NCBI GenBank assembly: GCA_016699955.1
Contig: CP064993.1
Coordinates: 1,110,001-1,142,000 of the forward strand
Direction: 5' to 3'
Length of the DNA: 32,000 bases
From: Candidatus Saccharimonadota bacterium
GTDB lineage: Bacteria; Patescibacteriota; Saccharimonadia; Saccharimonadales; UBA4665
This document shows, in pieces, positions 7,966 to 32,000 of this stretch. The notes beneath the pieces were generated by a model. The model did no database searches and was not told the DNA's origin. It saw only the letters and a list, made by a program, of their open reading frames with translations. A program made the translations under genes and the position numbers. Positions within the stretch are counted from its first letter, which is position 1; each line of letters starts with the position of its first letter.

Positions 7966-7974
7966 ATGAAACTT

Positions 7975-12755: not shown

Positions 12756-12757
12756 GT

Positions 12758-15975: not shown

Positions 15976-16073
15976 TTTACAACTTAGTGTACCCCTGGCT
16001 CAGTGTAAGCGCGGCTATTAGCGCCTAAGGGCGCTAACGAGCGAGAGCAAGGCTTTCAGGGTTGGGTGGGCTT

Positions 16074-16104: not shown

Positions 16105-16146
16105 GGGCTATGTTATACATCAGGTTGGAATGTTATTTCTTGCGGA

Positions 16147-18433: not shown

Positions 18434-18544
18434 GCATACAGTTTAAAACAATTGGTTGGGCTATAATAGGTGGCCTTAAAATTAAGAAACAAAAAACGCA
18501 TGGTAATGTTACACAAACTTGGCTGCTGGGGTTGGTTTCGAATC

Positions 18545-18919
18545 CTAAATCAAAAGCCTAACTTTTATCTGGATGAGGTCTTTATATAAATTCGCTAGTT
18601 TCTTGTCAAATGTAACAAACACTTCACAGCCGTTACGAATGGCGACTGCCAGCTGGAGAGCGTCTTCAAAGTCATTGTCTCGTGCATTTGCAAAAGCCCA
18701 CTCAAAATCGCTTGCTTCTAAGCTTAGTAATGTATAGTCGGCCAAAAATGAGCGCAGTATTGGCAGCTCAACGATTGATCTGCCAAAATGGGTAACGATA
18801 TGTGCTGTAAGGGCAGATATGAAAATCTCTCCGCTTTGCTCTTCAAGCAATTTCCGAGCACTTTTTTCATTTGGCCGACTTAGCAGTATTTCTAGCAGAA
18901 TGTTTGCGTCTAAGTACAT
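18545..18919 (-). CDS. vapC: PIN-domain toxin (VapC-like)
   Basis: MYLDANILLE (the first acidic residue of the PIN domain), with later acidic residues including a C-terminal TFD. It directly abuts the upstream antitoxin gene. Confidence 0.75.
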   Translation of the reverse strand: MYLDANILLEILLSRPNEKSARKLLEEQSGEIFISALTAHIVTHFGRSIVELPILRSFLADYTLLSLEASDFEWAFANARDNDFEDALQLAVAIRNGCEVFVTFDKKLANLYKDLIQIKVRLLI

Positions 18920-19195
18920 CTATTTGCCCAAGTACTTTTTACTAATGGATTTAGTGTAGAGGTCCTTTAATGAGGACTTTCGGTCAAATGGATTAGACTT
19001 TTTTGAAGCTGCGTCAAATGCATTCAGACCAGCGTGCCTCTCGTTAGATGTACTTGGGCTACGCGAATAGACTGCGCTTAACCGAATGGGGTGTTTCTTG
19101 AGCCGGTGACTTACGAGAATTTCTTCACCATTAGCAACCTGGTCAAGGATTTTATCTAGATTGATGCGTAATTCTTTTGCGCCAATTGTTTTCAT
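18920..19195 (-). CDS. vapB: Type II antitoxin (Phd/YefM-like, VapB role)
   Basis: MKTIGAKELRINLDKILDQVANGEEILVSHR is a typical Phd/YefM N-terminus. Its stop is adjacent to the vapC start. Confidence 0.7.
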   Translation of the reverse strand: MKTIGAKELRINLDKILDQVANGEEILVSHRLKKHPIRLSAVYSRSPSTSNERHAGLNAFDAASKKSNPFDRKSSLKDLYTKSISKKYLGK

Positions 19196-19201
19196 ATCTC
19201 T

Positions 19202-19230
19202 AGTTTAACTTAAAGTCAACTACGAGTCAA
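19202..19230 (-). promoter_or_regulatory. Putative vapBC promoter/operator: GTTGACT-CGTA-GTTGACT direct repeat, -10 TAAACT 6 nt before the ATG
   Basis: The minus strand reads GTTGACTCGTAGTTGACTTTAAGTTAAACTAGAGATATG. The distal TTGACT (19225-19230) lies 17 nt from TAAACT (19202-19207). Confidence 0.45.
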
Positions 19231-19232
19231 CA

Positions 19233-19263
19233 ACAAGGGCCAATAACTCGTTGGCTGGAGATA
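19233..19263 (+). repeat. R1: 31-nt direct repeat ACAAGGGCCAATAACTCGTTGGCTGGAGATA (partner at 21012-21042)
   Basis: 26 of 31 positions match R2. It contains the hairpin GCCAA-N7-TTGGC and the TTGGCTGG junction motif. Confidence 0.8.
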
Positions 19264-19378
19264 AATATCTGGAACATATACCTGTAAATTTAAGATAATG
19301 GTTTTTTTAGTTTGTTAAACAGGCGTTTAATAAACCTCCGCGCTAGAATCGTTTATCATCGATTTTGAGTGGTAAGTG

Positions 19379-20020
19379 CTAGGGAGCTTTATCTGCAAAA
19401 ACTACTAAGCGCTGCTCAAAACTTAACCCAGTGCTATCCCAATTACCGGCACAGGTAATAAGATTTAAATGTGAACCACTCGTGCTATTAAATACCTCAT
19501 CAGGCTGAGCATTTTCAGGATAATGACGTATCTCGCTAACAACGAAGGTGACAGAAAGGCCGTTGCTTTCTATGACAATAATACTATCGCCTTTAGCAAG
19601 TTTGTTAAGATTACTAAATACGCCTGGCTGACCACGCAGTCCATCCAGATGTCCAGCGATTACAGCAGTCCCCTCGTTGCCCGGCAGAACTCCATGTTTA
19701 TACCACCCTAAGTCATAGACGTTTGCAGGCATATCCATAATTCCATTTTTTGTCAGACCGACATACTTAACCTGAGAGTCTACTTGTATTTTTGGAATTT
19801 GTAACCGAGTAGGAAGCGAGTAATTAATACTAGTTTTATTCGCAGTTGCAGGTATACTTGCTGCAACCGCATGAACTGGTTCCTGCACATGCGTATCACT
19901 TGAATTATAAAAATAGTTAGATATTAGATAAGTACCAGATATCACCATTGGGCCAATAATAAATACGCTGTATCTAGGCTGTCTCTTCCTTTTGGAACCG
20001 CAGATGTACTTATAACTCAT
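19379..20020 (-). CDS. Sortase (class E/F-like cysteine transpeptidase)
   Basis: N-terminal TM anchor, catalytic His context TAVIAGHLDG, Cys context LNLITCAG (TL.TC-type) and Arg in QRLVVFA. Confidence 0.85.
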   Translation of the reverse strand: MSYKYICGSKRKRQPRYSVFIIGPMVISGTYLISNYFYNSSDTHVQEPVHAVAASIPATANKTSINYSLPTRLQIPKIQVDSQVKYVGLTKNGIMDMPANVYDLGWYKHGVLPGNEGTAVIAGHLDGLRGQPGVFSNLNKLAKGDSIIVIESNGLSVTFVVSEIRHYPENAQPDEVFNSTSGSHLNLITCAGNWDSTGLSFEQRLVVFADKAP

Positions 20021-20034
20021 TATGCGGGAAGAGT

Positions 20035-20925
20035 TTAAGCTGGTTTTCGTATAGTTCGTTTGATTATTAAGCCAGTTAGGGATAAAAATATTCCAGTATA
20101 AAAAGCGCCTTTAACTATGCTTGGATAAGCTGGTTGGCTTAAACCTGTGTTGGGCAAACCCGGCGTCCTAGGGGCAGCTGAGGAGGAGTTACCAGCTGGG
20201 TTCGAACTTGTACATGCGGTGCTGCTTATAGTATCTGCGTCTGTCGAAACAGTTCCGCCGAAAGCTAAAGCCCGACCAGTCCATATCACCAGATTACCAA
20301 TTGTGATTCCTGATGCGTCAATTACATTACCGCTGAATGTAGAATTTGCTCCGAGTGTAGTTGCCGCTCCGGGGGTCCACCATACATTACATGCTGAAGC
20401 ACCGCTAGCCTGTGCCACAACTGAATTCGCTGATGTATTGAAAGCGCCTGTCATTCTAAATATATATGTGCCTGCACCTGACAGCGTAATGGTGCCGCCG
20501 CCACCGATAGATGCAGCACCAGATATGCAGTAAACACCAGGAACATAAACTCCTGCTGCTCCATGAGTAACATCCGAAGCAAGGTCAATAGCACCTGGGG
20601 CAAATGTAAAAGTACAAGGCTGGCTATTTAACGCGCTAAGTGCAGTGCCTTGGTCTATCCCTTCTTGGTTATAAGTAGAATCGGCCACGTGTGTAGTGCC
20701 GTTTACTGTCGGAGGGGTAGCAGGAGGGGTAGTGTATCCCAAATCACCACTTATCGTCGTCCCTGAGGTCGTATTTGTATATGTACCTGATAGTACTGTA
20801 AACCCATCAGTTATGCCGAGCGAAGGCGAAGTTGCTGCGATGGCTAAAGGTGAAGCAGTTAGAATTGACAATCCAAGTGATAAAAACCCGATTTTTATTA
20901 ACTTTTTCATCGTTTTCCTTTTCAT
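20035..20925 (-). CDS. DUF3494 (ice-binding-like) surface protein with a C-terminal LPNTG sorting signal
   Basis: Signal peptide MKRKTMKKLIKIGFLSLGLSILTASPLAIA; start 20925 is preferred over the ORF-track start at 20991. DUF3494-type motifs are present: FTVLSG..TNT..T.I.GDLG, PGVYC, ACNVWW, F.GN.I..SGIT and GRALA.GG.V. The C-terminus has LPNTG, a hydrophobic helix and a basic tail. The gene lies 14 nt upstream of the sortase gene. Confidence 0.85.
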   Translation of the reverse strand: MKRKTMKKLIKIGFLSLGLSILTASPLAIAATSPSLGITDGFTVLSGTYTNTTSGTTISGDLGYTTPPATPPTVNGTTHVADSTYNQEGIDQGTALSALNSQPCTFTFAPGAIDLASDVTHGAAGVYVPGVYCISGAASIGGGGTITLSGAGTYIFRMTGAFNTSANSVVAQASGASACNVWWTPGAATTLGANSTFSGNVIDASGITIGNLVIWTGRALAFGGTVSTDADTISSTACTSSNPAGNSSSAAPRTPGLPNTGLSQPAYPSIVKGAFYTGIFLSLTGLIIKRTIRKPA

Positions 20926-21011
20926 TTTTGTATCCCACCTGGACTCACCGTTAAGAGACGCTTGCTTCAATACAAATTTTATCATAATCATTATCCTTAT
21001 GTCAAACTCAA

Positions 21012-21042
21012 ACAGGGGCCAATAACTGCTTGGCTGGGCATA
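21012..21042 (+). repeat. R2: ACAGGGGCCAATAACTGCTTGGCTGGGCATA, the partner of R1
   Basis: See R1. The two copies bracket the sortase/DUF3494 gene pair. Confidence 0.8.
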
Positions 21043-21107
21043 CTGGCTGTATTATTGGAAGAAATTAGTATGCTGCCAAACGTGTTTTACGCTAAAAAAT
21101 ATTTAGA

Positions 21108-21575
21108 TTATTGCAGGGAATGATATTTTTCTGTCATAAGTAAGTCGGTCATATGTTTTTTGATTTTAGAAACATCTTCCTGATTTAGTTTTTGAAAACC
21201 ATCATAGAAGCCGGTATCTCGAAATGGTAGTTTAACGGCTTCACCATACTTCTGCGTCTTGGCATTTATTGCCCTGCCAAACACGTGCATATGAAGTGTA
21301 AGGCCTTCAGGCTTAAACACACTCCAGTTACCCATCTCTTGCCAGTTTACGTTACCAATTTGTATGCCTTGTTCGCCCATTGCATTTTCAAGTGCCTTAC
21401 CAACAACTTCTGAAAGTAGGGCATATTCCATTGTTTGTTCAATATTTAACTCAGTACGATCTTTGATTCTGATCTTGGACATAATCCGTAAATGCCCACC
21501 GTCATTACGATCTACAAATGGGTTTTCTGGCACCTCAACGACAAATGTATTTGTTTTTAGAATGACTTCGTTCAT
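21108..21575 (-). CDS. HIT-like family protein with a variant histidine triad
   Basis: The layout GGHL.I..K...DRTEL..EQ..E...L...ALE......GN.N.QE.GN....LTLHMHVFGR parallels HIT proteins (..H.H.H..PR). The first His of the triad is Thr here. Confidence 0.5.
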   Translation of the reverse strand: MNEVILKTNTFVVEVPENPFVDRNDGGHLRIMSKIRIKDRTELNIEQTMEYALLSEVVGKALENAMGEQGIQIGNVNWQEMGNWSVFKPEGLTLHMHVFGRAINAKTQKYGEAVKLPFRDTGFYDGFQKLNQEDVSKIKKHMTDLLMTEKYHSLQ

Positions 21576-21691
21576 GTATATATCCTAACAGACAAAAGAC
21601 CTCCCAAAGAAAACTTTTCTATGGTTCATACTTAGCCTTAGATCATAGACGTCATAAGAACCATTCTGACTCGCTCCAGAGAAAGTGCATC

Positions 21692-22237
21692 CTAAAAGGT
21701 AGCGAATATAATTGCACCAAAAAAGACTCCATAATATGCTGCCTGTAACAAGAGCTGTGGTAGCGGTGATCTTTTCCAAACTATCACTAGGCCTAAAATG
21801 AGCAGCATGATCGCAAGACATGCTCCCATAATGATTTTGTCAAATGACGAAATAGTAGAGGCTACTATTGAACATACGATAACGGCTATTAGTAGTGCTC
21901 CCGATACCCTAGCGAATAGCTGATGTATCAATGTTTTTACTCCGCCTGTTTCTGGAACGAATGTACAGGCAATTTGGGCAAGTGTGGAAGATGCTACTAA
22001 GTAGAGGACTACGTTGGAAAGCTGATAATGCGGCACAAAATATTTATAGAAAAATAGGTAAAGAATCGGCAAAGCTAGCAGAAACAATACAATGTAGTAA
22101 AAGATTGTCGCGTTTTGAGCAGCAGCATGCTGGCTAAATGTTTTATTTATTCCTTGGGGCCATTTTAGCGTTAATATCACTAATCCCACTATAAGAATGA
22201 GTAATGCGTAAAGGATGTAATACTTATAAGTTTGCAT
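21692..22237 (-). CDS. Hypothetical multi-pass membrane protein
   Basis: 181-aa hydrophobic ORF. Confidence 0.55.
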   Translation of the reverse strand: MQTYKYYILYALLILIVGLVILTLKWPQGINKTFSQHAAAQNATIFYYIVLFLLALPILYLFFYKYFVPHYQLSNVVLYLVASSTLAQIACTFVPETGGVKTLIHQLFARVSGALLIAVIVCSIVASTISSFDKIIMGACLAIMLLILGLVIVWKRSPLPQLLLQAAYYGVFFGAIIFATF

Positions 22238-22255
22238 GTTGCCCTTACTTTATCA

Positions 22256-22280
22256 CTAAAAAGAACTTCCAAAGAAGTCC
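22256..22280 (-). terminator. Rho-independent-type terminator after the 72-aa gene
   Basis: The minus strand reads GGACTTC-TTTG-GAAGTTC followed by TTTTTAG. Confidence 0.5.
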
Positions 22281-22356
22281 TTAACTATGCATATGGTTGG
22301 CTGCCGTTAGTTGACTTAGTTCGCAACGTTGATATCCAAATCTGAATCTGTAGAAA

Positions 22357-22575
22357 CTACCGCCTTTTTAAAAATGCTATGGCTACCTTAATTATTACAA
22401 AAGCAGAAACCAAAGTCACAGGAAACCCTAGTATGAGGGCTAGTCCCATGAATCCGCTTTTGTCATCTCCTACCATAAAGAGACCCATTACAAACTGAAA
22501 TACAAATATGCCTGTAATTCCAAAAAATACTAACAATATTATGTAGTCGTACCACCGTAAATTATTTAAATCCAT
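22357..22575 (-). CDS. Small two-helix membrane protein
   Basis: 72-aa ORF with two hydrophobic helices. Confidence 0.45.
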   Translation of the reverse strand: MDLNNLRWYDYIILLVFFGITGIFVFQFVMGLFMVGDDKSGFMGLALILGFPVTLVSAFVIIKVAIAFLKRR

Positions 22576-22650
22576 GGCTATATCTTAACATAATATATAC
22601 CGATTATGGTTGGCCTGAGATCGTCGGCATTGCTAGGACTGGTTTTGTAA

Positions 22651-23331
22651 CTAAAAGGGTTGTCGGATAATGGTTTTAAGCTTTTCAGGGGCTGTCCGCC
22701 GCGCATCACCTAAGTAAATCTCGTGGTGATGTTTGTTAGTATCTTCAAGCTTCCCACCTTGATCACTTATGAACTGGTGTAATTCTTGAATGGTTGGCCC
22801 TTCATAAGCATAGGGACCCACGTACATCACTTGTGCAGCACGTCCTTCGTCGTAAGACTCAAAACGCACTTTATCTAATGATCTGGGAGACTTCTTCTCT
22901 CTTACTTGTTGAACCGCTTGGTTGTATATGTCTTCAGTAATCACATCGGGTTGCATAATCATTGCCGTCCACAGCCAGTTACTTTTGTCAGTTGGGCTAA
23001 AATCTGCCATATTTTCAGTCCACCATAGCCCCTCAAGAGGCATGACCCCAAAATCATTGCCGTACTTGAGCTTACTAATGAATTTAATTGTATAGGCAAC
23101 AGGATAAAGGCTTTGGATAGCGTCAATATATTCCTGGCTGATGTTTGGGTCGCCTTTGCCATCAATCATAATAAAGTTCATCTTTGGGACTTGTACAGCA
23201 ACCGGTTTACCGACTTTTCCACTAAACAAATGCTTCAGCTCTTTCTTATAGTCAGTTTTATTCACGACAGAACCTCCAAACTTTTTGGTATTGGCCGACA
23301 GCCACACTGCTTCTGGTGTACCAAATGCCAT
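22651..23331 (-). CDS. GyrI-like small-molecule-binding domain protein
   Basis: V.VP.MNFIMIDGKGDPN, PLEGLWW, W.WTAMIMQPD, GPY..EGPTI..LH.FI and HHEIYLGDARRTAPEKLKTIIRQP are near-textbook motifs of the GyrI-like family as remembered. Confidence 0.75.
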   Translation of the reverse strand: MAFGTPEAVWLSANTKKFGGSVVNKTDYKKELKHLFSGKVGKPVAVQVPKMNFIMIDGKGDPNISQEYIDAIQSLYPVAYTIKFISKLKYGNDFGVMPLEGLWWTENMADFSPTDKSNWLWTAMIMQPDVITEDIYNQAVQQVREKKSPRSLDKVRFESYDEGRAAQVMYVGPYAYEGPTIQELHQFISDQGGKLEDTNKHHHEIYLGDARRTAPEKLKTIIRQPF

Positions 23332-23463
23332 TTAACCCGTTCAGCTTTTGTAGCATTTCGTGGTAGTTTATTTTGTTGGTGCCAAAGTTTATTTATCATG
23401 CACACCTTTCTGCAATAAGCTTATATCCATATATTCAGCTATGCAACGGCTCTTTCGTACTTC

Positions 23464-23488
23464 ATAAATAAACTTCCCTACAGAAGTT
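23464..23488 (-). terminator. Hairpin terminator after the 62-aa gene
   Basis: The minus strand reads AACTTC-TGTAGG-GAAGTT followed by TATTTAT. Confidence 0.4.
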
Positions 23489-23523
23489 CTTTGTCATGAT
23501 AATGCTTGGCTGACAGTCTGGGT

Positions 23524-23712
23524 CTAGAACGTAATATTTAAATTCACTCCGAGTAAGAGCAGCGGCCAGAGAAAAATTGCGAGTAAAGCTGAAAGAATAT
23601 CCGGTACTGATCCTAGACTCGCAAGGTATCCTCGATTACTTGCTAGGATAATTCCAATAATAATATAGATGAGACTACCTATAGAAAAACGGTTCATAAG
23701 CTCCTCCTTCAA
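23524..23712 (-). CDS. Small two-helix membrane protein
   Basis: 62-aa hydrophobic ORF. Confidence 0.45.
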   Translation of the reverse strand: MKEELMNRFSIGSLIYIIIGIILASNRGYLASLGSVPDILSALLAIFLWPLLLLGVNLNITF

Positions 23713-24022
23713 CTAAAAATCTTAGTATAGCCTTGAGTATGCGCCACTATTTTTTTTAATACAATCAGTTGTCGCTCGGCTAAGTATTCGTCAAATTGCG
23801 AAAATATTTGCGCTGATCTTGCGGCCTATGTTTAATTTGCTGATTTTAGAATCAACTAGGCGACTAAATGTGATGTAAACAGGTTATTCAAATATCAAGC
23901 TAAGGTATAAAAAAGACATTCAAATCTATTTGGACGCTGTTTACGTGACCACGCGCACAGACACAAAGGATGATACAGCACATACTTTAGACTGTCATAT
24001 AAATTAACGAAGGGATAATATT

Positions 24023-24301
24023 ATGGACGATGCTTACGATGATAATCCAACAAAAAGTGATAACGTAGCAAAAACTTTAGCTGTTGTAGCAATATTACTC
24101 GCAATGATTGCTACTGGCTGGGCAATGAAGGCAGATAAGAGGGCGGGTGTTGCAGAAAATAAGGCTACACAATCAAGTCAACAATCTAGTGCGGACAACC
24201 AACCGGTTACAGGAACAAATGCTGCAAGCGAAACTAATGCTAGCGGTACCGGTGTTGGAGCGGCAGGAAGTGTATCAGAAGCTAACGGGACAGGACAGTA
24301 A
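24023..24301 (+). CDS. Small membrane-anchored low-complexity protein
   Basis: 92 aa with one TM helix (LAVVAILLAMIATGWAM) and a Q/S/A/G/T-rich tail. AAGGGA lies upstream of the ATG. Confidence 0.5.
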   Translation: MDDAYDDNPTKSDNVAKTLAVVAILLAMIATGWAMKADKRAGVAENKATQSSQQSSADNQPVTGTNAASETNASGTGVGAAGSVSEANGTGQ

Positions 24302-24455
24302 AGACTAAACTCTTACACTACCTCTAAATCATATTTTGAACATGTAAATATTTTACAGTTCATACACGGAGTTGAACCAAAAGGGCTAACCGAGTCTTGA
24401 TGTAGATAAGGTCCATTCTCCTGGCGCAAATATTTAATTATGAAAGGTTAACACT

Positions 24456-24800
24456 ATGGCTAAATTACAAGACTTAGACAATATGACAAAAGCATACGGA
24501 TGTCATAATACAGGTGCTTTTAATGGGCTTGGAATATTTTTTCTAGGATCATTTATGGGAATAGCAACGGGCTTATTATTAGCACCTAGAGGTGGTCAAG
24601 AAACTAGAACCAAAATTAAACAAAAAGCCTTGGATGTCTTAGATAAGAGCCGTGATAAAATGGGCAACGTCATGGACAAAGCAAAGGATAAAGTCGAACA
24701 GACAAGTGAAAAAACAAGTCAAGTTGCTGAGGTTGCCAAGCAAGCTGTGTCGGATTTAAAAGAACAGCAACCAAAGATGAATTCGAAATATAGTAGATAA
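24456..24800 (+). CDS. YtxH-domain protein
   Basis: A TM helix is followed by LLLAPRGGQETRTKIKQKA, which matches the YtxH hallmark LLAP.SG.ETR. The tail is Lys/Glu-rich and helical. Confidence 0.6.
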   Translation: MAKLQDLDNMTKAYGCHNTGAFNGLGIFFLGSFMGIATGLLLAPRGGQETRTKIKQKALDVLDKSRDKMGNVMDKAKDKVEQTSEKTSQVAEVAKQAVSDLKEQQPKMNSKYSR

Positions 24801-24852
24801 TTATTTGGGATTAAACCCTTCTGGATTGTTACCTGTTCAATCAGTCATATAT

Positions 24853-25018
24853 TTTCTGGGGATGAGGGGTTCGGCCTTGCTTCGGCAAGCCCGCAGCTAC
24901 GCGGTTAGCTGCACCCTCTCACCAGAAGATTGACTTGAGGTTAGAAAAATTCAATCTCAAATATGCAAAAAGCCGGCTCAAGAAGACCAGGCTTTTTGCA
25001 TGACTGGGGATGAGGGAT
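24853..25018 (-). repeat. Junction unit U1: core motif copy 1 (24853-24870), helix-closed two-hairpin core, bidirectional hairpin (24963-25001), core motif copy 2 (25001-25018)
   Basis: GGGGATGAGGG (24858-24868) pairs with CCCTCTCACC (24914-24923). Inner hairpins are CTTGC-TTCG-GCAAG and GCAGCTA-CGCGGT-TAGCTGC. ATGCAAAAAGCC pairs with GGCTTTTTGCAT. Confidence 0.8.
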
Positions 25019-25133
25019 GATTATAGAACCCTGATCGGCGTGGAGGCCGAGGCGCTATGTTTGCGTGAAATGAACGAAGTCGACATCGAGATTCAAGTAC
25101 ATGCTTACGACCATTCACTTTCACGCAAATAGT

Positions 25134-25964
25134 CTACGGTACGTGCATTCGATGGCCAACAGCATTTCTCAGAACGTACGTTATGCCGACGATGACTCCG
25201 CCGATTAGTGCAGGCAGTATATTAAGTTCAGCGCTTCGCACTGCTGACTCGGTACTAACTTTGAAGAGATAAAAATTATCCGACCCAAGTTGATACGAGC
25301 CTTCGAAGCCACTCGAAACCATTACAAGTGGGATAATAGCCTGAACCATTATTATGACCCCAGCCCCTATGAGCGCAGTTATCATGAACGAACTCCGTTG
25401 TTTTGATTTTTCAGTAGACTCTCTGCCGGTCTTTGCAGCAGTGGCATTACTTGAGAATACTTCCGTACCAATTTTAGTATCTAGAATCAGTACATCTTTG
25501 AATTTCAAATATTTCCATAATTTAGATGCTATCCATATATCACCAACGGCACCAGCGAAGTTTCCGAGAAAACCAATCATAAAAAGATTCTGGTAAGCAG
25601 GAAATAATATGCTTAAGACGATAAAGACTACCGATAGTACCACGAAGGGTAAATATGCTACAAGGAGCATATTTTTGACAGGTAATTTTTGGTCTGAAGT
25701 TGCATAGGCGACAGGTATAATGCCCGCAATACCAATCCCAAACCTTGGCCAAGCGCCACCCAGTAAAAACCCGAGGCCATGTAGTAGCTCATGAATAACT
25801 AGAGTAATCAGGTAAACGGCTAGAGCCTCAAAACCAAAGCTCTGCGACGTCTCACCCACTATACCTTGAAAAATTGCAGCGCCAATGAACAAGAACAGTA
25901 TCATTTGTGCACTGAGCGCATACGACTGTTGCCTCGTTATTTGAATTGTTTCTATTTTTTTCAT
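25134..25964 (-). CDS. Membrane protein with an HExxH motif (DUF3267-like putative zincin peptidase)
   Basis: 276 aa and multi-pass, with LVIHELLHGLGFLLGG embedded between TM helices. Confidence 0.5.
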   Translation of the reverse strand: MKKIETIQITRQQSYALSAQMILFLFIGAAIFQGIVGETSQSFGFEALAVYLITLVIHELLHGLGFLLGGAWPRFGIGIAGIIPVAYATSDQKLPVKNMLLVAYLPFVVLSVVFIVLSILFPAYQNLFMIGFLGNFAGAVGDIWIASKLWKYLKFKDVLILDTKIGTEVFSSNATAAKTGRESTEKSKQRSSFMITALIGAGVIIMVQAIIPLVMVSSGFEGSYQLGSDNFYLFKVSTESAVRSAELNILPALIGGVIVGITYVLRNAVGHRMHVP

Positions 25965-26031
25965 TTAGGTTATTGTATCAAAGTTCCGAGCTAGTAGCGA
26001 AGGAGCGTGTAGGATTCAAGTACTTATATCC

Positions 26032-26232
26032 TGGCTGGGGATGAGGGATAGCGGCTAAAACCTTCTCCACTTGTTTGCAAAATGAACAAGCTCATTTTTC
26101 TACACTGCGCTACGCCGAACCTCCCAATACGTTTTGCTCCGCAAAACTTCGGAGCCTCGTATCCCAACAGTCGCAGAGTCAAGAAGAAACACCCTGCAGC
26201 CGTAGGGTGTTTCTTCTTGACTGGGTATCTGT
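26032..26232 (-). repeat. Junction unit U2: core motif copy 3 (26032-26049), structured core, 18-bp hairpin (26178-26221), degenerate motif CTGGGTATC
   Basis: TGGCTGGGGATGAGGGATAG is present. GGGAT/GAGG pairs with CCTC-GT-ATCCC (26155-26165). Hairpins are CTTGTT..AACAAG and GCTCCG..CGGAGC. GTCAAGAAGAAACACCCT pairs with AGGGTGTTTCTTCTTGAC. Confidence 0.75.
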
Positions 26233-26249
26233 GACGAAGTTTGTATCAT

Positions 26250-26400
26250 ACCCCCTAGACCTACGGGTCTAAACTAAAAGAGGAGATCCAGCCTGATGAA
26301 GTTTGGAGAAATGGCGACAGCCATTTCATCCACTGTTCTAGCGTCTGGTCTCCTCTGTTGGTGTGTCAATCTATACCAGGTTGAGTGATGCTACTCAAAT
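26250..26400 (+). ncRNA. Candidate IS110 bridge-RNA-like structured leader
   Basis: Nested helices: 26279-26291 pairs with 26345-26356, GAAATGGC-GACA-GCCATTTC lies at 26308-26327, and TAGACC-TACG-GGTCTA at 26256-26271. Internal-loop segments match DNA at 27477-27492 (see findings). Confidence 0.35.
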
Positions 26401-26519
26401 AACACACAAGCCTATTGTACGCCAACGCCGGAGGGGACTGCAATGCATCTCCGCTTTCTTCTCTTTTCCTTTTCTCTTCTTTCTTTAACAGATGAACGTA
26501 ACACTGTAGGAGGATTACT

Positions 26520-27470
26520 ATGCAAGTAGTCGGTTTTGACGTAGGTAAAGACAGTTTATTCGGCGCCCGGATAGATGCCAGTACGAACGTAAAAGAACGC
26601 TTTGAGATACGAAACAACCAGGCAGCAATTACTACTGTCCTGGCGGACCTGCGGAGCCGCTACCGACGGCTTCTGGTAGCTAGTGAGTCAACCGCTGAAT
26701 ACCACCTAACACTCGCCCGGGTGTGCCTTGATCTGGGTATCCCATTTCGCCTGCTTAACCCGATTATTACTAAGCAATTTACCCGCGCTACCGTCCGGAA
26801 GATGAAGACCGATCCGTCTGACGCCTGGGTCATTGCTAAGCTCGCTCAACAAGGTGAAGGAACTCGTGTCACTGAAGATTTGTTCCATCCCAACAAACCA
26901 ATCCTGCGTACTAGCATGCGCTTGACGAGATTTTCCCAGATACTAGACCTCACGCAGCAACGACTTGCCACCAGATTACCGGAGGAGACTGCGTTACTAG
27001 AGGAACTACATGACTGCCAGGTACGCTTGGAGACGGCGGTAGCCGTCTTCCGAACGAGAGCCAGAAGTACGACTGATGACCATCTCCACCAACTACTCAT
27101 GACGATCCCGGGCATTGGTGAAACCATTGCCACTACCCTGATTGCTGAGATTGGAGATATTACTAGATTTCATGGGCCGAAGGCACTAGTGGCATTTGCC
27201 GGCCTCGACCCACGCGTCCGGCAGAGTGGCTACAGTTTGCAGCGCAATACCAAACTCACGAAACGAGGCTCGCCGTATTTACGGCGTAACCTCTACATTG
27301 CGGCGAGTGTGGCTCAGCGCTACGACAACCAGTACAAAGTTGCATTCAACAAGAAACGAGCTGAGGGCAAACGCAACAAAGCCGCCACCATTGTGGTGGC
27401 TAGAAAGATTCTCAACACTGCTTACGCAGTATGGAGTAGTGATACTCCGTACCACCCACCTAAAGCTTGA
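26520..27470 (+). CDS. IS110-family transposase (DEDD recombinase)
   Basis: The N-terminus VVGFDVGKDSL carries the first D of the DEDD motif. The C-terminus IPGIGETIATTLIAEIGDITRFHGPKALVAFAGLDPRVRQSG matches the Transposase_20-type signature. AGGAGG lies 7 nt upstream of the ATG. Confidence 0.92.
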   Translation: MQVVGFDVGKDSLFGARIDASTNVKERFEIRNNQAAITTVLADLRSRYRRLLVASESTAEYHLTLARVCLDLGIPFRLLNPIITKQFTRATVRKMKTDPSDAWVIAKLAQQGEGTRVTEDLFHPNKPILRTSMRLTRFSQILDLTQQRLATRLPEETALLEELHDCQVRLETAVAVFRTRARSTTDDHLHQLLMTIPGIGETIATTLIAEIGDITRFHGPKALVAFAGLDPRVRQSGYSLQRNTKLTKRGSPYLRRNLYIAASVAQRYDNQYKVAFNKKRAEGKRNKAATIVVARKILNTAYAVWSSDTPYHPPKA

Positions 27471-27558
27471 CTTGAGATACCAGGTCTAGAACTTTATTGG
27501 TAAACTCAATATGTATTTCTTATTAAGCTGCCCGTCGTAGACGTACTTCGAACTTTTG

Positions 27559-28119
27559 TTAGGAAGTGACTGGGTAACTGTTTGTAGCTACATCGATGCT
27601 ATTAACTGAAAGCAACTGTCTGGAACAATTATCGCCGATAATCATATCAGGTATTGCTATTATTTCGCCCTGATATACGAATGTCGTTTTGTCGGCGACA
27701 ATATTATGATCTTTGTCGCAGAATAATGAAGCAAATGAGGGATTAACATTGCCTTTCTCACTAATCATGACCACTTGCTGTGTGCCGGAGATGTCTTCAG
27801 TCCATTGATTGTTTACTGTAAACGGTCCGATTTTATGTTCAGTAGTAAGAGTTGCGCTACCTTCAACTTCATGATTTGATGTGATAATACTCAACACCCT
27901 TGCTCCAGTAGCACTGATATTCAGGTATAACTTATTACCGTTAGCAGTGAAGAACGGATGCTTATACTCTGAGATAGCAGTCATTTGTGGGCTTTCGGAT
28001 GAGCTGCTGCATGAAGCCAGCGCCCCTGATAGTAATAAACTTGATGCAAGTACTGCTGCATTTCTAGGTGTAGCTAGTCGTCGACCAGGAGATTCTGCAA
28101 TTGATTTTCTAATAAACAT
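27559..28119 (-). CDS. Putative lipoprotein
   Basis: Signal sequence ending in the lipobox LASC (SSLLLSGALASCSSSS), 186 aa. Promoter-like TTGACC-17 nt-TTATTA ends 7 nt before the ATG. Confidence 0.65.
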   Translation of the reverse strand: MFIRKSIAESPGRRLATPRNAAVLASSLLLSGALASCSSSSESPQMTAISEYKHPFFTANGNKLYLNISATGARVLSIITSNHEVEGSATLTTEHKIGPFTVNNQWTEDISGTQQVVMISEKGNVNPSFASLFCDKDHNIVADKTTFVYQGEIIAIPDMIIGDNCSRQLLSVNSIDVATNSYPVTS

Positions 28120-28166
28120 TAGATGATAATAACATAAAAGTACGGGTCAGGTCAACTAATATAGCG

Positions 28167-29687
28167 GTAGCTGCTCACTACCCCAAAGTAGCAAGTGCCT
28201 TAAAGTAACCCGTAGGGTTAGTGCGCCACGTAGTGGTGCACAAAGATAAGATGGTAGCGAGTGCTCGGGCACCCTTTTCTGTTTGGCTACCGAAAGAGCG
28301 TTTGCGCTTTAGTACAAGTTGCCTTAGGTCGCGTTCAGCTCGGTTATTGTCACAGGGCGTGTTGTAGATGAGACAGGCAAACAACTTTGCTTGTCCTGCT
28401 CTGGTAAGCTGAGCTTTCAGCTTGGTGAGTTTTACTGGCTCGGTGGCATTAGTCTGCAATAACGGTTGAAGCCGTTGCCAAAACACATTGCTTTGCTTTG
28501 TCCTGGCTGCAGGATCATAGGTTTTTGCGAGGCATTGTCTCAGATCCTGGTAGATACTCGCGAACTGCTCGTACCACCAAGTTACGTCAGGTAACTGTTC
28601 TTCGGGTAGGTTGTCGTTGTAGCGCAGATCCCGAATGCAACGGTACAAGTGAGCCCAGCATAGCTGTTGCTGTCCGGGGAGACTACGGTATACGGCGTAG
28701 TCATCAGAAATACGGACACCCGTAAACTGTTCACCAATGAGATTACGGGCGTGGGTTACACCACGACTGTTCTCTAGTGAATAGCAAACCTTTTCACTGC
28801 TGGCATCGCTAAGGCACCATGCGTAGCCATAGCCGTCATTCTGTTGGATTGCCCACGGCGTTTCATCAACATGGATGGCTGGTGCGGCGCGAATGTCAGC
28901 TTTGAGTTGGCCAAGAGCCTGACGCCACCGCTCGTGTTGTTTCTGAAGGATACTGGCTACTTCTCCGTCAGATACGGCAAGGCCGTACAAACTATGTAGC
29001 AACTGTGTTACCTGTGTATAGCTCATACCGAGTGCGCTGATCAGGTGACAGATAAGCAGCTTGGAATTAGGCCCAAGCGTCACCACTTGGCCGCCAAGTG
29101 CTTTGCCACTGGTGGCTTTGCCGCAAGCGGCACAAACACCACGCTGCACGAGATACTTTGTCACGAGGCGTGAAGAGTAGTTTGGAGTTAATTCAGGCGA
29201 AGGGATATCCTCTTCATAGCGATCATGGGTTGTGACGTTTCTTAACTCGCCACCGCAGAGACAGAGTTCAGGTAGGGGATGACTACCTCATTCATAATGG
29301 CTGTAGCGGGTGGAATTGGCCGACGGTAGGAGGCTTTGGTGCGGGGCAATTTCTGGATCTCGGGCTGCACTGGAACTGCCGTTCCAGTCGGTGGCCGTTT
29401 CTTCTTGCCAAATACCATGGTTTGAAGCTCTGCTATCTGAATTGCCTGAGTCTTGTTTTGCTCAAGTGCTTGGTTGAGCAGCTGGCGGAGCTCCTTGTTC
29501 TCAGCTTTCAATTCGGCGATCTGTATGCGATCATGCGCATGTAGCTTCCGAAGGTTACGGAGCTCTACCATCCGTGCGGTAATAACATCGTCTGAAAGTT
29601 TTCGAGTCATATGTGTTTGTTTTGATTCGTCCTAAACTAAAGTTTAGCCCGAATGCTTTGATGAGGCAAGAGGTAGTGAGCGGTTAC
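28167..29687 (-). mobile_element. IS66-family insertion sequence (single-ORF type), complete ends
   Basis: The left terminal repeat GTAGCTGCTCACTACCCC (28167-28184) matches the reverse complement of 29670-29687 (GTAACCGCTCACTACCTC) at 15 of 18 positions. A perfect 8-bp direct repeat ATATAGCG flanks the element at 28159-28166 and 29688-29695. Confidence 0.9.
28178..29610 (-). pseudogene. IS66-family transposase split by one frame change (ORFs 29242-29610 and 28178-29164, or up to 29287 in the second frame)
   Basis: The N-terminal coiled-coil ORF ends at 29242. The frame one nucleotide back (-1) is open from 29287 and reads HPLPELCLCGGELRN...VCAACGK (zinc-finger region). It continues into the DDE core (DETPW..., CWAHLYRCIRDL, CDNNRAERDLR). 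The frames overlap at 29245-29287 around a C4 run. Confidence 0.8.
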
Positions 29688-29718
29688 ATATAGCGATTAA
29701 TAACATAATACTTATGCT

Positions 29719-29736
29719 TGGCTAGGGATGAGGGAT
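29719..29736 (-). repeat. Core junction motif copy 4 (TGGCTAGGGATGAGGGAT)
   Basis: 17 of 18 positions match the copy at 26032-26049, and both continue with AG. It lies between the cupin stop (29776) and the IS66 target site. Confidence 0.8.
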
Positions 29737-29775
29737 AGAACTATTCCACACTTTGTTCGGAATAATTCATAGATC

Positions 29776-30168
29776 CTATGCCGTTGTTTTGCCGTCAAAT
29801 TTATCTTCAACTTCATCGGCCTTCGTAGGCTGAATAGTGTCCTTAAGGTGATTGGGTGGCGAATAAAGCGTGTAAAGTTTTAGCTCGACATCGCCCGTAT
29901 TGGTAACATTGTGGTAGGTGCCTGCTGGAATAATAATCGCCCAATCATCCTTCAGCTCATATTCATTTTCACCGTTGTTTAACACAACTTTCGCTTTACC
30001 ACTCTCGACCCTTATAAATTGATCGAGTCCGTGAATCTCATTACCAATTTCTGTGCCAGGAGGTAGGCTCATAAGAACTAGCTGTGTGTAATGCGTGGTG
30101 TGGATTACACGACGGTAATCTGAATTTTCGGTGGTTAGCTTTCCAATGTTTTTTACAAAGTATTTCAT
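29776..30168 (-). CDS. Cupin domain protein
   Basis: MKYFVKNIGKL... with G.EIGNEIHGLDQFIRVESG and IIIPAGTYHNVTNTG cupin motifs. Start 30168 is preferred: a TATACT -10 lies 6 nt upstream, and the ORF-track extension to 30324 runs through junction unit U3. Confidence 0.85.
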   Translation of the reverse strand: MKYFVKNIGKLTTENSDYRRVIHTTHYTQLVLMSLPPGTEIGNEIHGLDQFIRVESGKAKVVLNNGENEYELKDDWAIIIPAGTYHNVTNTGDVELKLYTLYSPPNHLKDTIQPTKADEVEDKFDGKTTA

Positions 30169-30221
30169 AAACTCAGTATACTCCGGCTGCGTTAATGCGT
30201 CTGTGATTAATAAAACAAAAC

Positions 30222-30425
30222 TGGCTGGGGATGAGGGATTCGACCTACTTTCAGCAGGCCTGTCGCAACTTCTTTGCAAAACTAGTTTGCAAGAGTTGAC
30301 TCCCTTGCGAATTGCCACCGGCAATTCTCACCCCGATCCTTAAGGTCAGAAATTCGAGCCCATAATCTCTAATATGCAAAAAGCCGGGTCAAGAAGACCA
30401 GTCTTTTTGCATGGCTGGGGGTAAG
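30222..30425 (-). repeat. Junction unit U3: core motif copy 5 (30222-30239, extended through a T-loop-like TTCGACC), helix-closed structured core, bidirectional hairpin (30373-30412), partial copy 6 (30412-30425)
   Basis: GGGG(A)TGAGGG (30227-30237) pairs with TTCTCACCCC (30325-30334). The inner hairpin GAATTGCC-ACC-GGCAATTC is perfect. The terminal segment AATATGCAAAAAGCCGG.TCAAGAAGACCAG.CTTTTTGCATG.CTGGGG is shared with U1. Confidence 0.8.
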
Positions 30426-30555
30426 TCCGACGCTTTGAACCCTTTATTTTCAGATTTCGTGCTCAATTGTCAGAAACCAAAGAAATTGGGCTTCATCCAC
30501 TTCAAGGGTAAAGTTACTGTTGCAGAACCTTAAGGGAATGAAGCAACCGGCTAGT

Positions 30556-31596
30556 TTACTCTATATCAAGAAGCACTCCGTACGAATCTTTGACGATTTG
30601 TTTCATGAGACTTATGTCGTTCATCTCATAGAACGCGATACAAGCACGTCGGTAGCGTGTCGGCTCGATACTGCCAAGGGTGATCGGTGGATATTCGTTG
30701 CTTTCAAGAATTGCGTTTGCGAGCACCCGTGCGGTTCTTTTATTGCCGTCGGCAAAAGGCTGCAGATAGGATATAAGCAGTAAAATTGCAAGTGCCTTAT
30801 CGAGTGGTTGTTCCATGGAGTTGACGGCGCTGATTACCTTATCGAAGTTCTCGTCGATTTGCGCACTGTGAGTAAGGGGGATGTATTTTGATCCGCTAAT
30901 ACGAACGGCTGCTGTACGCAAGCCATACGATACATCGAGATCTTGGACTAGTAGCTCATGGAGCCTGAGTATCAGCGGGCGTGATATTGTTTTGAAGCTT
31001 TCCCTGTTCCCAAGTATGAAGTCATAGGCTTTTTGATGGTTTACAATCATCACGGCTTCTTGGTGAGTTTTGCCAGCAGCTTCTACCCTGTCTAGCAATA
31101 ATGTTTCTGTCTCTAGCTCCGAGTATGTATTGCCTTCGATGGAGCTAGATTTCCAAGCAAACTCTATAAGCCATTTCTGGCGCCATCTTGCTAACAGGGT
31201 GCTGTCCAGAGATTCCAGAAAATGTTGATACTTTGTTACGATCATCCTTTCGGCATTACCAAAAACGCCCTCGCCGATGTATCGCGCAGTCATTTCTGGT
31301 GCGTCAAGCAGATAACGAACCGACTGCCTTGCATCGTCTCTTAAATACGCATCGATTGCATCTGCCGAACGTTCTATATGAAGCCGTCCTAGTGTTGTAA
31401 GAGAATGTTGGCGACTAGGGCCAGCACCTTCGCTGGCTACTAGGCCTGCTACCGTCAGAGCTTTAACATCTCGCTGGATCGTATCGTCAGATACAGCGAA
31501 GCCTATTTCTGTCATCATCTCTAATACTTTTGCCGTGCTCGCTGGCAGCATAAACAGAACATTCAGTAGGTCACTTTGTCGTTTCTGTAGTTTCAT
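30556..31596 (-). CDS. Fic/DOC-family protein with an N-terminal HTH-like region and a degenerate active-site motif
   Basis: The Fic core region reads ISYLQPFADGNKRTARVLAN, against the canonical HPF.(D/E)GNGR..R. The N-terminus STAKVLEMMTEIGFAVSDDTIQRDVKAL is HTH-like. Start MKLQKRQ (31596) is preferred to the ORF-track start at 31626. Confidence 0.75.
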   Translation of the reverse strand: MKLQKRQSDLLNVLFMLPASTAKVLEMMTEIGFAVSDDTIQRDVKALTVAGLVASEGAGPSRQHSLTTLGRLHIERSADAIDAYLRDDARQSVRYLLDAPEMTARYIGEGVFGNAERMIVTKYQHFLESLDSTLLARWRQKWLIEFAWKSSSIEGNTYSELETETLLLDRVEAAGKTHQEAVMIVNHQKAYDFILGNRESFKTISRPLILRLHELLVQDLDVSYGLRTAAVRISGSKYIPLTHSAQIDENFDKVISAVNSMEQPLDKALAILLLISYLQPFADGNKRTARVLANAILESNEYPPITLGSIEPTRYRRACIAFYEMNDISLMKQIVKDSYGVLLDIE

Positions 31597-31784
31597 ACGT
31601 GCCCTAATTTTACCACAACACCGCAAAGGTGGCGTATTTTAGTCTCGAATACCCGCATATTGCGGTGATTACCTGGCGTTTTTACTGATACTCACCTTGC
31701 TCATATCAACATGTCGCGGAGTATACAGTGATGTGATTTTTTTCAAATTGCCTAAAACATACCATCTATACAGTGTGATTATAT

Positions 31785-31802
31785 TGGCTGGGGCTAGTGG
31801 AT
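31785..31802 (-). repeat. Core junction motif copy 7 (TGGCTGGGGCTAGTGGAT, diverged)
   Basis: The first 9 nt are identical to the consensus and 14 of 18 match overall. It is intergenic, upstream of the Fic gene. Confidence 0.55.
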
Positions 31803-31857
31803 GTATTCCAGGAAAACCGACAATTCCACATCACGGGTGTGGTCTCACTAGAGATGG

Positions 31858-31863
31858 TATAAT
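31858..31863 (+). promoter_or_regulatory. Extended -10 (TGGTATAAT) for the last plus-strand gene
   Basis: TGG precedes TATAAT (31858-31863). AAGGAG lies at 31881-31886 and the ATG at 31896. Confidence 0.45.
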
Positions 31864-31895
31864 CAGCACATTATAGTAAGAAGGAGCATGGTCGT

Positions 31896-32000
31896 ATGAT
31901 TCTAACTGACAAAGTAGTCCAAACAGGATTAGATGATACCAACCAACATTTAGCCAGTGATCTTGCAGGGCATGAAAAAGAGGCTGAGGCTAAAGGTGAG
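31896..32000 (+). CDS. 5' end of an unidentified protein-coding gene that runs off the window
   Basis: An ATG with a good Shine-Dalgarno sequence, then 35 open codons (MILTDKVVQTGLDDTNQHLASDLAGHEKEAEAKGE). Confidence 0.4.
   Translation, partial: MILTDKVVQTGLDDTNQHLASDLAGHEKEAEAKGE

Follow-up and report, generated by a model that had tools for sequence, protein, structure and literature searches.

We analysed a 32-kb window (32,000 nucleotides (nt); positions 1,110,001 to 1,142,000 of contig CP064993.1) of a Candidatus Saccharimonadota (Saccharibacteria) chromosome, in which an 18-nt motif related to tRNA-Gln recurs between genes. It is likely that positions 24853-31832 are the best-preserved part of an integration hotspot, that is, a genomic island, anchored on tRNA-Gln. 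The motif is the tRNA-Gln 3' end, its copies are intergenic and lie on one strand, and the same architecture recurs behind tRNA-Gln and tRNA-Trp genes in relatives. Moreover, a strain-level breakpoint falls inside a site of the tRNA-Trp type, and a tyrosine integrase and large serine recombinases are tied to the tRNA-Gln end. The interpretation given in a first-pass annotation of this DNA, which had suggested serial integration at a tRNA-Gln gene, is partly supported by these results.

We searched both strands of the window with the 18-nt query TGGCTGGGGATGAGGGAT, allowing at most three mismatches, with shuffled sequences as a control. Five matches were found, all on the plus strand; chance alone predicts 0.01, and five were not reached in any of 100 shuffles. 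The copies at 26032 and 30222 are exact, those at 25001 and 29719 have one mismatch each, and that at 24853 has three. Repeat finding added three weaker copies at 26218 (partial), 30412 and 31785; the last two are genuine members of the family, as judged from repeat finding and a scan for tRNA-sense sequence, so that the window holds two exact and six diverged copies. Every copy is intergenic with its tRNA sense on the minus strand, and the tRNA-sense scan found no copy on the plus strand of the window. The repeated, same-orientation, intergenic motif of the first-pass annotation therefore stands. When a position weight matrix (PWM) was built from sites of other loci only, plus one generic tRNA-Gln tail, the copy at 31785 received the highest score in the window (18.7 bits). 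Some copies are longer than the query: that at 30222 measures 22 nt, and that at 25001-25036, which includes a small T-loop insertion, measures about 36 nt. GATC opens several of the sites (c2, c4 and the units carrying the element X described below). Sites are spaced 0.15-1.4 kb apart, except for 3.7 kb across two insertion sequences (IS), or about 0.9 kb without them. The sites are as follows.

24853-24870, minus strand: site c1, within geneless unit U1; distal end of the well-preserved part.
25001-25036, minus strand: site c2, tRNA-Gln positions ~44-76 with a small T-loop insertion, GATCAGGGTTCTATAATCATCCCTCATCCCCAGTCA.
26032-26049, minus strand: site c3, exact 18-mer, within geneless unit U2.
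26218-26235, minus strand: site c3b, partial copy.
27524-27557, minus strand: 'type B' site, AAAAGTTCGAAGTACGTCTACGACGGGCAGCTTA, directly 3' of the stop codon of a lipoprotein-like gene; like the sites of the tRNA-Trp array of locus L121 (judged by eye).
29719-29775, minus strand: site c4, GATC, a 35-nt hairpin insert and ATCCCTCATCCCTAGCCA; terminates the cupin module.
30222-30243, minus strand: site c5, TCGAATCCCTCATCCCCAGCCA, within geneless unit U3.
30412-30442, minus strand: site c6, degenerate tRNA-Gln 3' part GGGTTCAAAGCGTCGGACTTACCCCCAGCCA; terminates the Fic module.
31785-31832, minus strand: site c7, ATCCACTAGCCCCAGCCA, with four mismatches to the tRNA-Gln 3' end and a degenerate T-arm-like hairpin before it; proximal boundary of the Fic module.

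We then compared the motif with other genomes. A scan for the exact 18-mer in one genome per species listed at least 120 loci (these and further loci are given here as L numbers), and among the matches listed the hosts are nearly all metagenome-assembled genomes of Saccharibacteria, Peregrinibacteria/Peribacteria or Gracilibacteria. In 47 of 50 tested loci the 18-mer closes a tRNA-Gln called by ARAGORN (mostly CTG, in some cases TTG) and includes its CCA; in more than 100 loci of the Candidate Phyla Radiation (CPR) it matches the 3' end of tRNA-Gln exactly. These genes end in ...GATCGGGGGTTCGAATCCCTCATCCCCAGCCA, of which the 18-mer forms positions 59-76; the CCA is encoded in the genome, and it is present in every good copy of the motif. 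The assignment to a tRNA-Gln 3' end with CCA, proposed earlier from the letters alone, is thereby confirmed, as is the statement that no copy sits in a complete cloverleaf, since ARAGORN finds no tRNA in the window. A reading of the plus strand as the 5' end of a transfer-messenger RNA (tmRNA; GGGGATGAGGGATTCGAC resembling GGGGCUGAUUCUGGAUUCGAC) was also considered; ARAGORN called no tmRNA in the window, Rfam returned nothing, and this candidate was dropped because the match to tRNA-Gln is exact. As a separate observation, the sequence just upstream of tRNA-Gln in L214 and L216, TCACTTCCTGGCT, is the reverse complement of the AGCCA tail plus the downstream flank, AGCCAGGAAGTGA, which makes a leader-trailer helix across the whole pre-tRNA possible.

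Arrays resembling that of the window are found behind tRNA-Gln in related genomes. More than one copy of the motif (at most three mismatches) occurs in 28 of the 120 loci among the matches listed, and the extra copies lie almost always downstream of the tRNA-Gln in the same orientation. Between copies we found 36 geneless units of 65-300 nt, with a mode of about 180-190 nt, and about 30 small modules of 0.5-4 kb with one to few open reading frames (ORFs). In L118, for example, a 1147-nt Fic module bounded on either side by an exact 18-mer lies directly behind tRNA-Gln. Behind tRNA-Gln in L045 (6247-6311) and L046 (5470-5611) we noticed very short geneless units (65-77 nt, site to site) in which a small hairpin and ...AATCGA come before the 18-mer, indicating that geneless units fall in several size classes.

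A second group of arrays follows tRNA-Trp(CCA). The Fic protein of the window is 100% identical to an entry from an NCBI Saccharibacteria contig, likely the source of the window itself, and a homologue with 78% identity in L121 and L122 lies in an array behind tRNA-Trp(CCA). There, at least 12 co-oriented genes follow the tRNA (L121, 9214-21038, and L122), encoding four Fic proteins, PadR, two DUF1048 proteins, an NlpC/P60-like protein, LCM, SDR and hypothetical proteins. Most spacers between modules hold a site resembling the tRNA-Trp 3' end, and the short spacers inside the PadR-DUF1048-DUF1048 cluster are without sites. The sites are of three kinds, namely near-copies of the tRNA, type A and type B. 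Type A consists of GGTTCTRTAATCRT and ACCTGCCCCTGCCA and has an odd T-loop core in common with c2 of the window (GGTTCTATAATCAT and CCCTCATCCCCAGTCA). Type B, AAAGTTGCGAAGT..GTCCACTAGGGACTGCCA, has an acceptor segment that no longer fits the tRNA, with GGGAC in place of the tRNA's GCCCC; c7 (ATCCACTAGCCCCAGCCA) and the site at 27524-27557 resemble this type. The right flank CCA|AGTATAA is common to Gln-type and Trp-type sites. L121 also contains a 129-nt geneless unit derived from tRNA-Trp twice (9283-9411 and 15915-16043, 79% identical).

The Fic gene allowed individual modules to be compared. It lies between two near-identical sites in L123, it has a tRNA-Trp upstream and a tRNA-Trp-like site after it in L127, and in L259 (85% identical) a Gln-type site follows the gene. 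Homology to relatives covers the promoter and ORF only. L124, L125 and L126 carry an identical Fic gene with different neighbours; the sequences of L125 and L126 agree fully (100% identity) for 3051 nt and part inside ...GCGTTGGACGTGTACCC|, a tRNA-Trp-like site. The surroundings of the homologues in L127-L131 and L258 are ordinary (polysaccharide genes, PRPP synthetase) and include no recombinase, so that little was gained from them on module movement.

Recombinases of two classes were found in association with this tRNA end. Of the recombinase families encoded by 122 ORFs downstream of tRNA-Gln, just one is present in more than one locus, a large serine recombinase with Resolvase, Recombinase and Zn_ribbon_recom domains, and Phage_integrase is absent from the families seen in at least two of these ORFs. 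BLAST clustering placed the large serine recombinase near tRNA-Gln in six loci. In L032 the gene reaches the tRNA-Gln end with its stop codon, and in L022 a gap of 72 nt separates the two; both genes are convergent with the tRNA, and in the other four loci the recombinase lies within 4 kb. We also scanned viral contigs for the 18-mer and found two, L132 and L133. L133 is phage-like (M23 peptidase/holin, YqaJ, SLT) and encodes a tyrosine integrase of 280 amino acids (PF00589, E=3e-39). A distance of 128 nt separates the integrase stop codon from GATCGGGGGTTCGAATCCCTCATCCCCAGCCA, a 32-nt partial tRNA-Gln that begins at GATC, as do several sites of the window. No full tRNA is on this contig, which gives the partial copy the appearance of an attP, and the neighbouring integrase indicates that classical integrases use this tRNA end. 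L132 is similar, with a 33-nt part of tRNA-Gln.

We propose that each copy of the motif would be the remnant of an attachment site, consisting of the 3' part of tRNA-Gln(CTG). At a minimum such a remnant would be the 18 nt of positions 59-76, CCA included, and some copies would extend back to C56 or to variable-loop position 44. An integrating element would bring its own copy of the tRNA 3' part, so that the tRNA would stay intact, and each new integration would shift the earlier copy and its cargo further downstream. The outcome would be a one-orientation series of site, cargo, site, cargo, in which the cargo is unusually fine-grained, consisting of single genes that would carry their own promoters (Fic, cupin, lipoprotein-like and DUF3267) and of three geneless units of about 150-200 nt, in each of which a terminator hairpin is joined to a folded-back tRNA 3' half with a structured insert (X or X2) at the T-loop position; IS66 and IS110 elements would have arrived after the array had formed. 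We infer that recombination, not duplication, made each boundary in the window, that modules without an integrase either owe their movement to an enzyme acting in trans or were left behind by deletion, and that the anchoring tRNA lies beyond base 32000.

The geneless units form a second main finding. According to the first-pass annotation, exactly one cargo gene lies between consecutive copies. Single-gene modules are indeed the rule, but three intervals (24853-25000, 26032-26217 and 30222-30411) contain no gene, and it was missed that these intervals are structured tRNA-derived units, with lengths of 148, 186 and 190 nt. Read on the minus strand, they comprise the following.

30222-30411, minus strand: geneless unit U3, with a terminator hairpin (30374-30412), a degenerate antisense tRNA 3' half (30344-30374), GATCGGGG, X (30236-30340) and c5, TCGAATCCCTCATCCCCAGCCA.
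26032-26235, minus strand: geneless unit U2, with c3b, a 19-bp perfect terminator hairpin (26177-26222), X2 after GGTTCG (26105-26125) and c3.
24853-25000, minus strand: geneless unit U1, with a terminator hairpin (24963-25001; 90% identical to that of U3), a shortened X and c1.

Alignment of U3 with its BLAST relatives revealed a unit design in which the preceding ...CCA is followed by a terminator hairpin, an antisense tRNA 3' half, a short loop, GATCGGGG, an element of about 100 nt that we call X, and TCGAATCCCTCATCCCCAGCCA. GATCGGGG is the sense strand of variable loop and T-stem, and X occupies the place of T54/T55 of the T-loop. The antisense arm is found in geneless units only, and the X2 of U2 is shared with L091. 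Three tandem units of 179-197 nt follow tRNA-Gln in L067, with more in L083, L092, L020 and L037; each of these tandem units ends in the last ~19 nt of the tRNA. In L079, L120, L118 and L039, X comes after an intact 5' part of tRNA-Gln (positions 1-52); a T-loop remnant lies on its other side, and then come a TATAAT promoter and a complete tRNA-Gln. X-like inserts are present at the D-loop position, too, in L024, L120 and L118.

X has a conserved structure. RNAalifold analysis of eight sequences gave three hairpins with compensatory changes in 21 of 30 pairs. In this alignment 92.9% of cells are paired, compared with 30-45% when the partners are slid, and double changes occur in 21 pairs, compared with 4-7; none of 500 shuffles reaches the observed score. 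Together with the tRNA tail, X is predicted to fold into a cloverleaf-like shape that is closed by a stem of 7 bp (GGGGUGA:UCAUCCC) and leaves the CAGCCA tail free. The fold z-score is -3.6 to -4.4 in three of four sequences tested (-3.6 for U3) and -0.8 for the L092 unit. We found no Rfam 15 match to X at 30222-30440 of the window, and eight X loci gave tRNA hits only; the Rfam rtT model had no hit in positions 24000-32000 at E<=10 or in eight related loci at E<=1. With a covariance model of X, U3 scores 109.5 bits (E=1e-25), and U1 holds a weak, shortened X (E=0.005). The model detects X in about 15 of the 120 listed loci, always beside tRNA-Gln; X loci include L039, L079, L092, L116, L118 and L120, together with the metagenome loci L138-L257.

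A metagenome search with the pattern GTGARNNNNGCCNGTGGCNNNNNGCAAGG yielded at least 120 metagenome matches and four viral contigs. Among the matches listed, 91 of 133 lie within 400 nt of a tRNA on the same strand, representing many isoacceptors, and X is found beside at least 20 verified tRNA isoacceptors on CPR-type metagenome contigs. The geometry falls into two sharp classes, in which the tRNA either ends 68-97 nt before X or starts about 123-190 nt after the start of X. In 26 of 44 cases with the tRNA downstream, a copy of its last 15 nt (at least 13 of 15 matching) lies 99-141 nt after the X start, and in 16 of 47 cases with the tRNA upstream, a copy of its first 40 nt precedes X. Removal of X in silico left an ARAGORN-callable tRNA in 16 of 133 matches. 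Eight of these 16 were inspected, and in each an intact copy of the same tRNA lies directly downstream, the spliced form having a poor 3' acceptor strand. The idea that X is an intron of a sole-copy tRNA was rejected for these inspected cases; with intact copies downstream, nothing in them shows X being spliced from a working gene. A literature search found no description of X, and X appears to be undescribed so far; the one CPR paper found to mention tRNA introns refers to group I introns. On its sequence context, the most economical reading is that X would be either a T-loop- or D-loop-directed insertion surviving only in dispensable partial tRNA copies, such as attachment-site duplicates, or a tRNA-scaffolded small RNA. 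Non-canonical tRNA introns at D-loop and T-loop positions are reported for Thermoproteales archaea and Cyanidioschyzon (for example PMC9602550, PMC3241643). X is like these introns in lying at T-loop (53/56) or D-loop positions, with related copies in many isoacceptors; it differs from them in being bacterial and about 100 nt long, and in that every X copy seen belongs to a partial tRNA beside an intact one.

Several findings weigh against an integration hotspot anchored on tRNA-Gln. The window contains no site-specific recombinase, as judged by Pfam and ORF inspection of all 32 kb, and ARAGORN found no tRNA in it. In eight relatives (L068, L047, L109, L102, L089, L038, L086 and L092) RarA has a tRNA-Gln(CTG) on its own strand, 1-4 kb further downstream. 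In the window, no tRNA comes after RarA (2143-3336), and the motif copies about 21 kb away face the opposite way. This orientation conflicts with the synteny of the relatives and implies a rearrangement or a second anchor; inversion of the tRNA together with the array, a second tRNA-Gln and an assembly issue are all possible. Related arrays include many sites that no longer match any functional tRNA end, and the GGGAC of type B, as opposed to GCCCC, is hard to square with each site having once completed a tRNA. The same Fic cassette has different 3' sites in different genomes. Among the 120 listed tRNA-Gln loci, only one pair exceeds 88% identity, and it is collinear, hence uninformative, with no module-level presence or absence. 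Finally, the geneless units have a conserved, covarying structure, unlike inert scars. Serial integration, as first suggested, is thus backed by the extra copies in 28 of 120 listed loci, the L133 integrase and the serine recombinases, but it needs a rearrangement to accommodate the RarA synteny. Polymorphism of modules at their boundaries, the expected trace of such movement, is seen at the L125/L126 breakpoint, which lies in a Trp-type site.

In a rival account, the modules would be integron-like cassettes, that is, units of promoter, gene and site moved in trans by a recombinase that is encoded elsewhere and reads a family of tRNA-3'-half-like sites (T-loop-like part, T-stem, acceptor strand, GCCA and an A/T-rich flank), with the tRNA gene as primary insertion point. 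This account, which we consider rather unlikely, refines the hotspot reading and departs from it in that the cassettes would never have had integrases of their own. It fits the single-gene grain and co-orientation of the modules in the window and L121, as well as the absence of integrase remnants between the modules of both. One array holds several diverged site types that no longer fit the resident tRNA, the core GGTTCTRTAATCRT and the flank CCA|AGTATAA are common to Gln-type and Trp-type sites, the same cargo family stands behind two different tRNAs, and an identical Fic gene has differing neighbours with a breakpoint inside a site. Like an integron, the array consists of co-oriented, mostly single-gene modules, each followed by a variable element resembling a recombination site, with ORF-less cassettes among them and a recombinase that would act in trans. 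However, no recombinase consistently adjoins the arrays in the tRNA-Gln and tRNA-Trp loci examined, neither a circular cassette nor an empty site was observed in our data, and the hallmarks of integrons are missing. Neither the window nor the surroundings of the tRNA-Trp arrays have an intI tyrosine recombinase. Where an integron has attC palindromes of inverse core and core with GTTRRRY, these arrays have direct repeats that resemble a tRNA 3' half and end in GCCA. A promoter and operator travel with Fic, whereas integron cassettes are promoterless and expressed from Pc. Decay of ordinary small islands could look alike. The fineness of the modules, the sites unlike tRNA and the occurrence of one cargo family behind two tRNAs speak for cassette-like behaviour as such, to which we give a rather low probability. 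The earlier alternative of a cassette array with tRNA-mimicking sites gains some support from the tRNA-Trp arrays, whose sites have diverged from tRNA.

Alternatively, the sites would be functional RNA elements, such as 3'-end, processing or stability signals or small tRNA-like RNAs, that were spread by local duplication and unequal crossing-over. In Escherichia coli tyrT, 178-bp repeats downstream of the gene each end in the last 19 nt of tRNA-Tyr (rtT RNA). The tandem, near-identical units of about 180 nt behind tRNA-Gln in L067 (three) and L083 are alike in being geneless and ending in the last ~19 nt of the tRNA; the strong covariation, the predicted cloverleaf-like X unit (acceptor-like closing stem, free ...CAGCCA tail, z about -4) and the presence of a site within 0-200 nt after every gene's stop codon also speak for such a role. 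The units differ from rtT in showing no sequence or Rfam likeness, in having a three-hairpin insert and an antisense arm, in being interleaved with protein-coding cargo and in occurring with at least 20 tRNAs. Such a role would not explain why unrelated cargo lies between sites, why identical genes have different neighbours or why a partial tRNA is linked to an integrase in the phage contig. No match to the Rfam rtT model was found either, and we regard this explanation as improbable. We also considered reverse transcription, in which the modules would be tRNA-primed or CCA-initiated cDNA products. The minimal 18-nt block (positions 59-76) has the span of a retroviral primer-binding site, and this coincidence of length and position, together with the CCA in every good copy, is all that speaks for it. 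The likeness was judged coincidental because orientation and promoters are unlike those expected from reverse transcription: the modules hold promoters upstream of their genes, and the copies lie 3' of genes and in tRNA sense, instead of 5' and antisense. In addition, CCA is encoded genomically in the tRNA genes, copies of 22-36 nt exist as well, and no reverse transcriptase is found among the window proteins or the ORFs of related loci. This origin is extremely unlikely.

Arrays of this kind are already known, and it is the single-gene grain and the diverged sites that are unusual here. Tycheposons of Prochlorococcus form islands beside a specific full-length tRNA, with elements flanked by partial tRNA copies (bioRxiv 10.1101/2020.12.28.424599). 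In these islands newcomers displace older elements inward, leaving degenerate remnants and additional partial tRNAs scattered, and integration is by tyrosine recombinases and, in fewer cases, by large serine recombinases (bioRxiv 10.1101/2020.12.28.424599). Tandem integration and decay in tycheposon islands thus also leave scattered partial tRNAs, which keeps serial integration as the base explanation. Our array shares with tycheposons the partial tRNA copies between tandem elements and a small, streamlined host genome. In contrast, it consists mostly of one-gene modules with their own promoters, contains no integrase or replication hallmark genes between sites, includes many related sites diverged from any tRNA, and is interleaved with geneless structured units. 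Composite islands of the staphylococcal cassette chromosome (SCC) are another precedent: they use CcrAB large serine recombinases and are bounded by direct repeats of the 3' end of rlmH/orfX, and many of their elements lack a recombinase of their own and are moved in trans. Arrays of cis-mobilizable elements (CIME) are, like SCC, described arrays of this kind. The SCC likeness extends to one-orientation arrays, direct repeats of about 15-18 bp from the 3' end of a conserved gene, and large serine recombinases, here near tRNA-Gln in six related genomes. The differences are a tRNA anchor instead of a protein gene, the lack of a ccr-like gene in the window and far smaller modules. With tycheposons, SCC and CIME arrays on record, the first-pass statement that no described system is bounded in this way was too strong.

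Recognised mobile elements are scarce in the tiny genomes of Saccharibacteria and other CPR bacteria, and the routes by which accessory genes reach these genomes are poorly understood. Long arrays that are headed by tRNA-Gln and tRNA-Trp and hold modules of one gene each (Fic toxins, toxin-antitoxin pairs, surface proteins and peptidases) offer a concrete, testable route of gene flux, and repeats of tRNA tails provide a simple signature of the flexible genome in metagenome bins. If the modules move singly, they would represent a second natural cassette-capture system besides integrons, with promoter-bearing cassettes. X targets the most conserved sequence of the tRNA, suggesting a new tRNA-directed insertion or a tRNA-scaffolded RNA. 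Only tentatively do we put forward the combined view of a tRNA-anchored cassette system in Saccharibacteria, and probably in other CPR bacteria, that would shuffle promoter-bearing single genes among arrays behind tRNA-Gln and tRNA-Trp through an unlinked recombinase, with X, in the T-loop or D-loop of spare partial tRNA copies, as a new T-loop-targeting mobile insertion or tRNA-scaffolded non-coding RNA.

The cargo genes and insertion sequences of the well-preserved part are listed below.

30556-31596, minus strand: Fic-family gene (Pfam Fic, E=1.5e-13), with its own promoter/operator from 31597 to about 31670.
29776-30168, minus strand: Cupin_2 gene (Pfam, E=1.5e-13), start codon 53 nt after c5.
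28167-29687, minus strand: IS66-family insertion (Pfam DDE_Tnp_IS66, E=2.7e-32), with 16-nt inverted ends and an 8-bp target duplication, ATATAGCG, at 28159-28166 and 29688-29695.
27559-28119, minus strand: lipoprotein-like gene, 186 amino acids, no Pfam family.
26222-27472 (approximate), plus strand: IS110-family insertion, transposase at 26520-27470 (Pfam DEDD_Tnp_IS110 and Transposase_20), CTTGACT at both ends.
25134-25964, minus strand: DUF3267 putative zincin membrane peptidase with HExxH (Pfam, E=4e-20), start codon 67 nt after c3.

Pfam bears out the earlier naming of Fic, Cupin_2, DUF3267, IS66 and IS110, but IS110, which had been assigned to the HExxH gene, shares the interval 26032-29719 with the lipoprotein-like gene and IS66. 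Similarly, the distance of 53-70 nt given earlier between motif and start codon applies to the cupin (53 nt), DUF3267 (67 nt) and lipoprotein-like genes (70 nt, with IS66 and its duplication removed) and not to Fic (188 nt). Every gene has a site within 0-200 nt 3' of its stop codon. By eye, -10-like boxes are seen upstream of the DUF3267 gene, and none is clear upstream of the cupin gene. A pair of operator-like boxes, ATCACCGCAATnTGCGGGTATT ... TTTGCGGGTGTTATGnTAnAAT, is conserved with the Fic ORF in the window (31597-31670), L121, L123, L124, L127, L131 and L259; as the boxes accompany this ORF everywhere, they suggest autoregulation and set the 5' limit of the cassette. The IS66 transposase is encoded in two ORFs (29242-29610 and 28178-29164, the latter being the DDE part), and the element separates the lipoprotein-like module from its upstream site. 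As IS110 abuts a geneless tRNA-derived unit, an IS110 end may account for part of the incomplete copy at 26218. A non-coding region of about 285 nt precedes the transposase of this element; in the IS110 family, bridge RNAs are encoded in the region upstream of the transposase.

The array probably continues leftward in an older form over 13944-23524, to judge from the distribution of site-like sequence. The minus strand carries all but one of the genes at 7200-23331, which have an accessory character (hydrolase, second cupin, methyltransferase, permease, PIN/Phd pair, sortase, ice-binding-like, HIT-like and GyrI-like). At a PWM threshold of 8 bits, 11 of 21 minus-strand hits are intergenic, as against 1 of 17 on the plus strand, and CAGCCA occurs between genes 11 times on the minus strand compared with twice on the plus strand. 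The second-best PWM score in the window (17.8 bits) is that of 21031.

23507-23524, 22298-22327, 21633-21662, 21031-21050, 19252-19271, 18520-18544, 15112-15155 and 13944-13958, minus strand: diverged ...GCCA sites in spacers between minus-strand accessory genes, each a candidate only.

At 7975-10412, two adjacent ORFs resemble phage tail-fibre/baseplate proteins (BppL_N, DUF5907 repeats), with no further phage genes near them; the 475-amino-acid ORF has an internal near-duplicate of about 90 residues. A two-gene module of a PIN-domain toxin and a Phd/YefM-like antitoxin lies at 18545-19195 and is directly followed by the tRNA-Gln-like site GATTCGAAACCAACCCCAGCAGCCA at 18520-18544.

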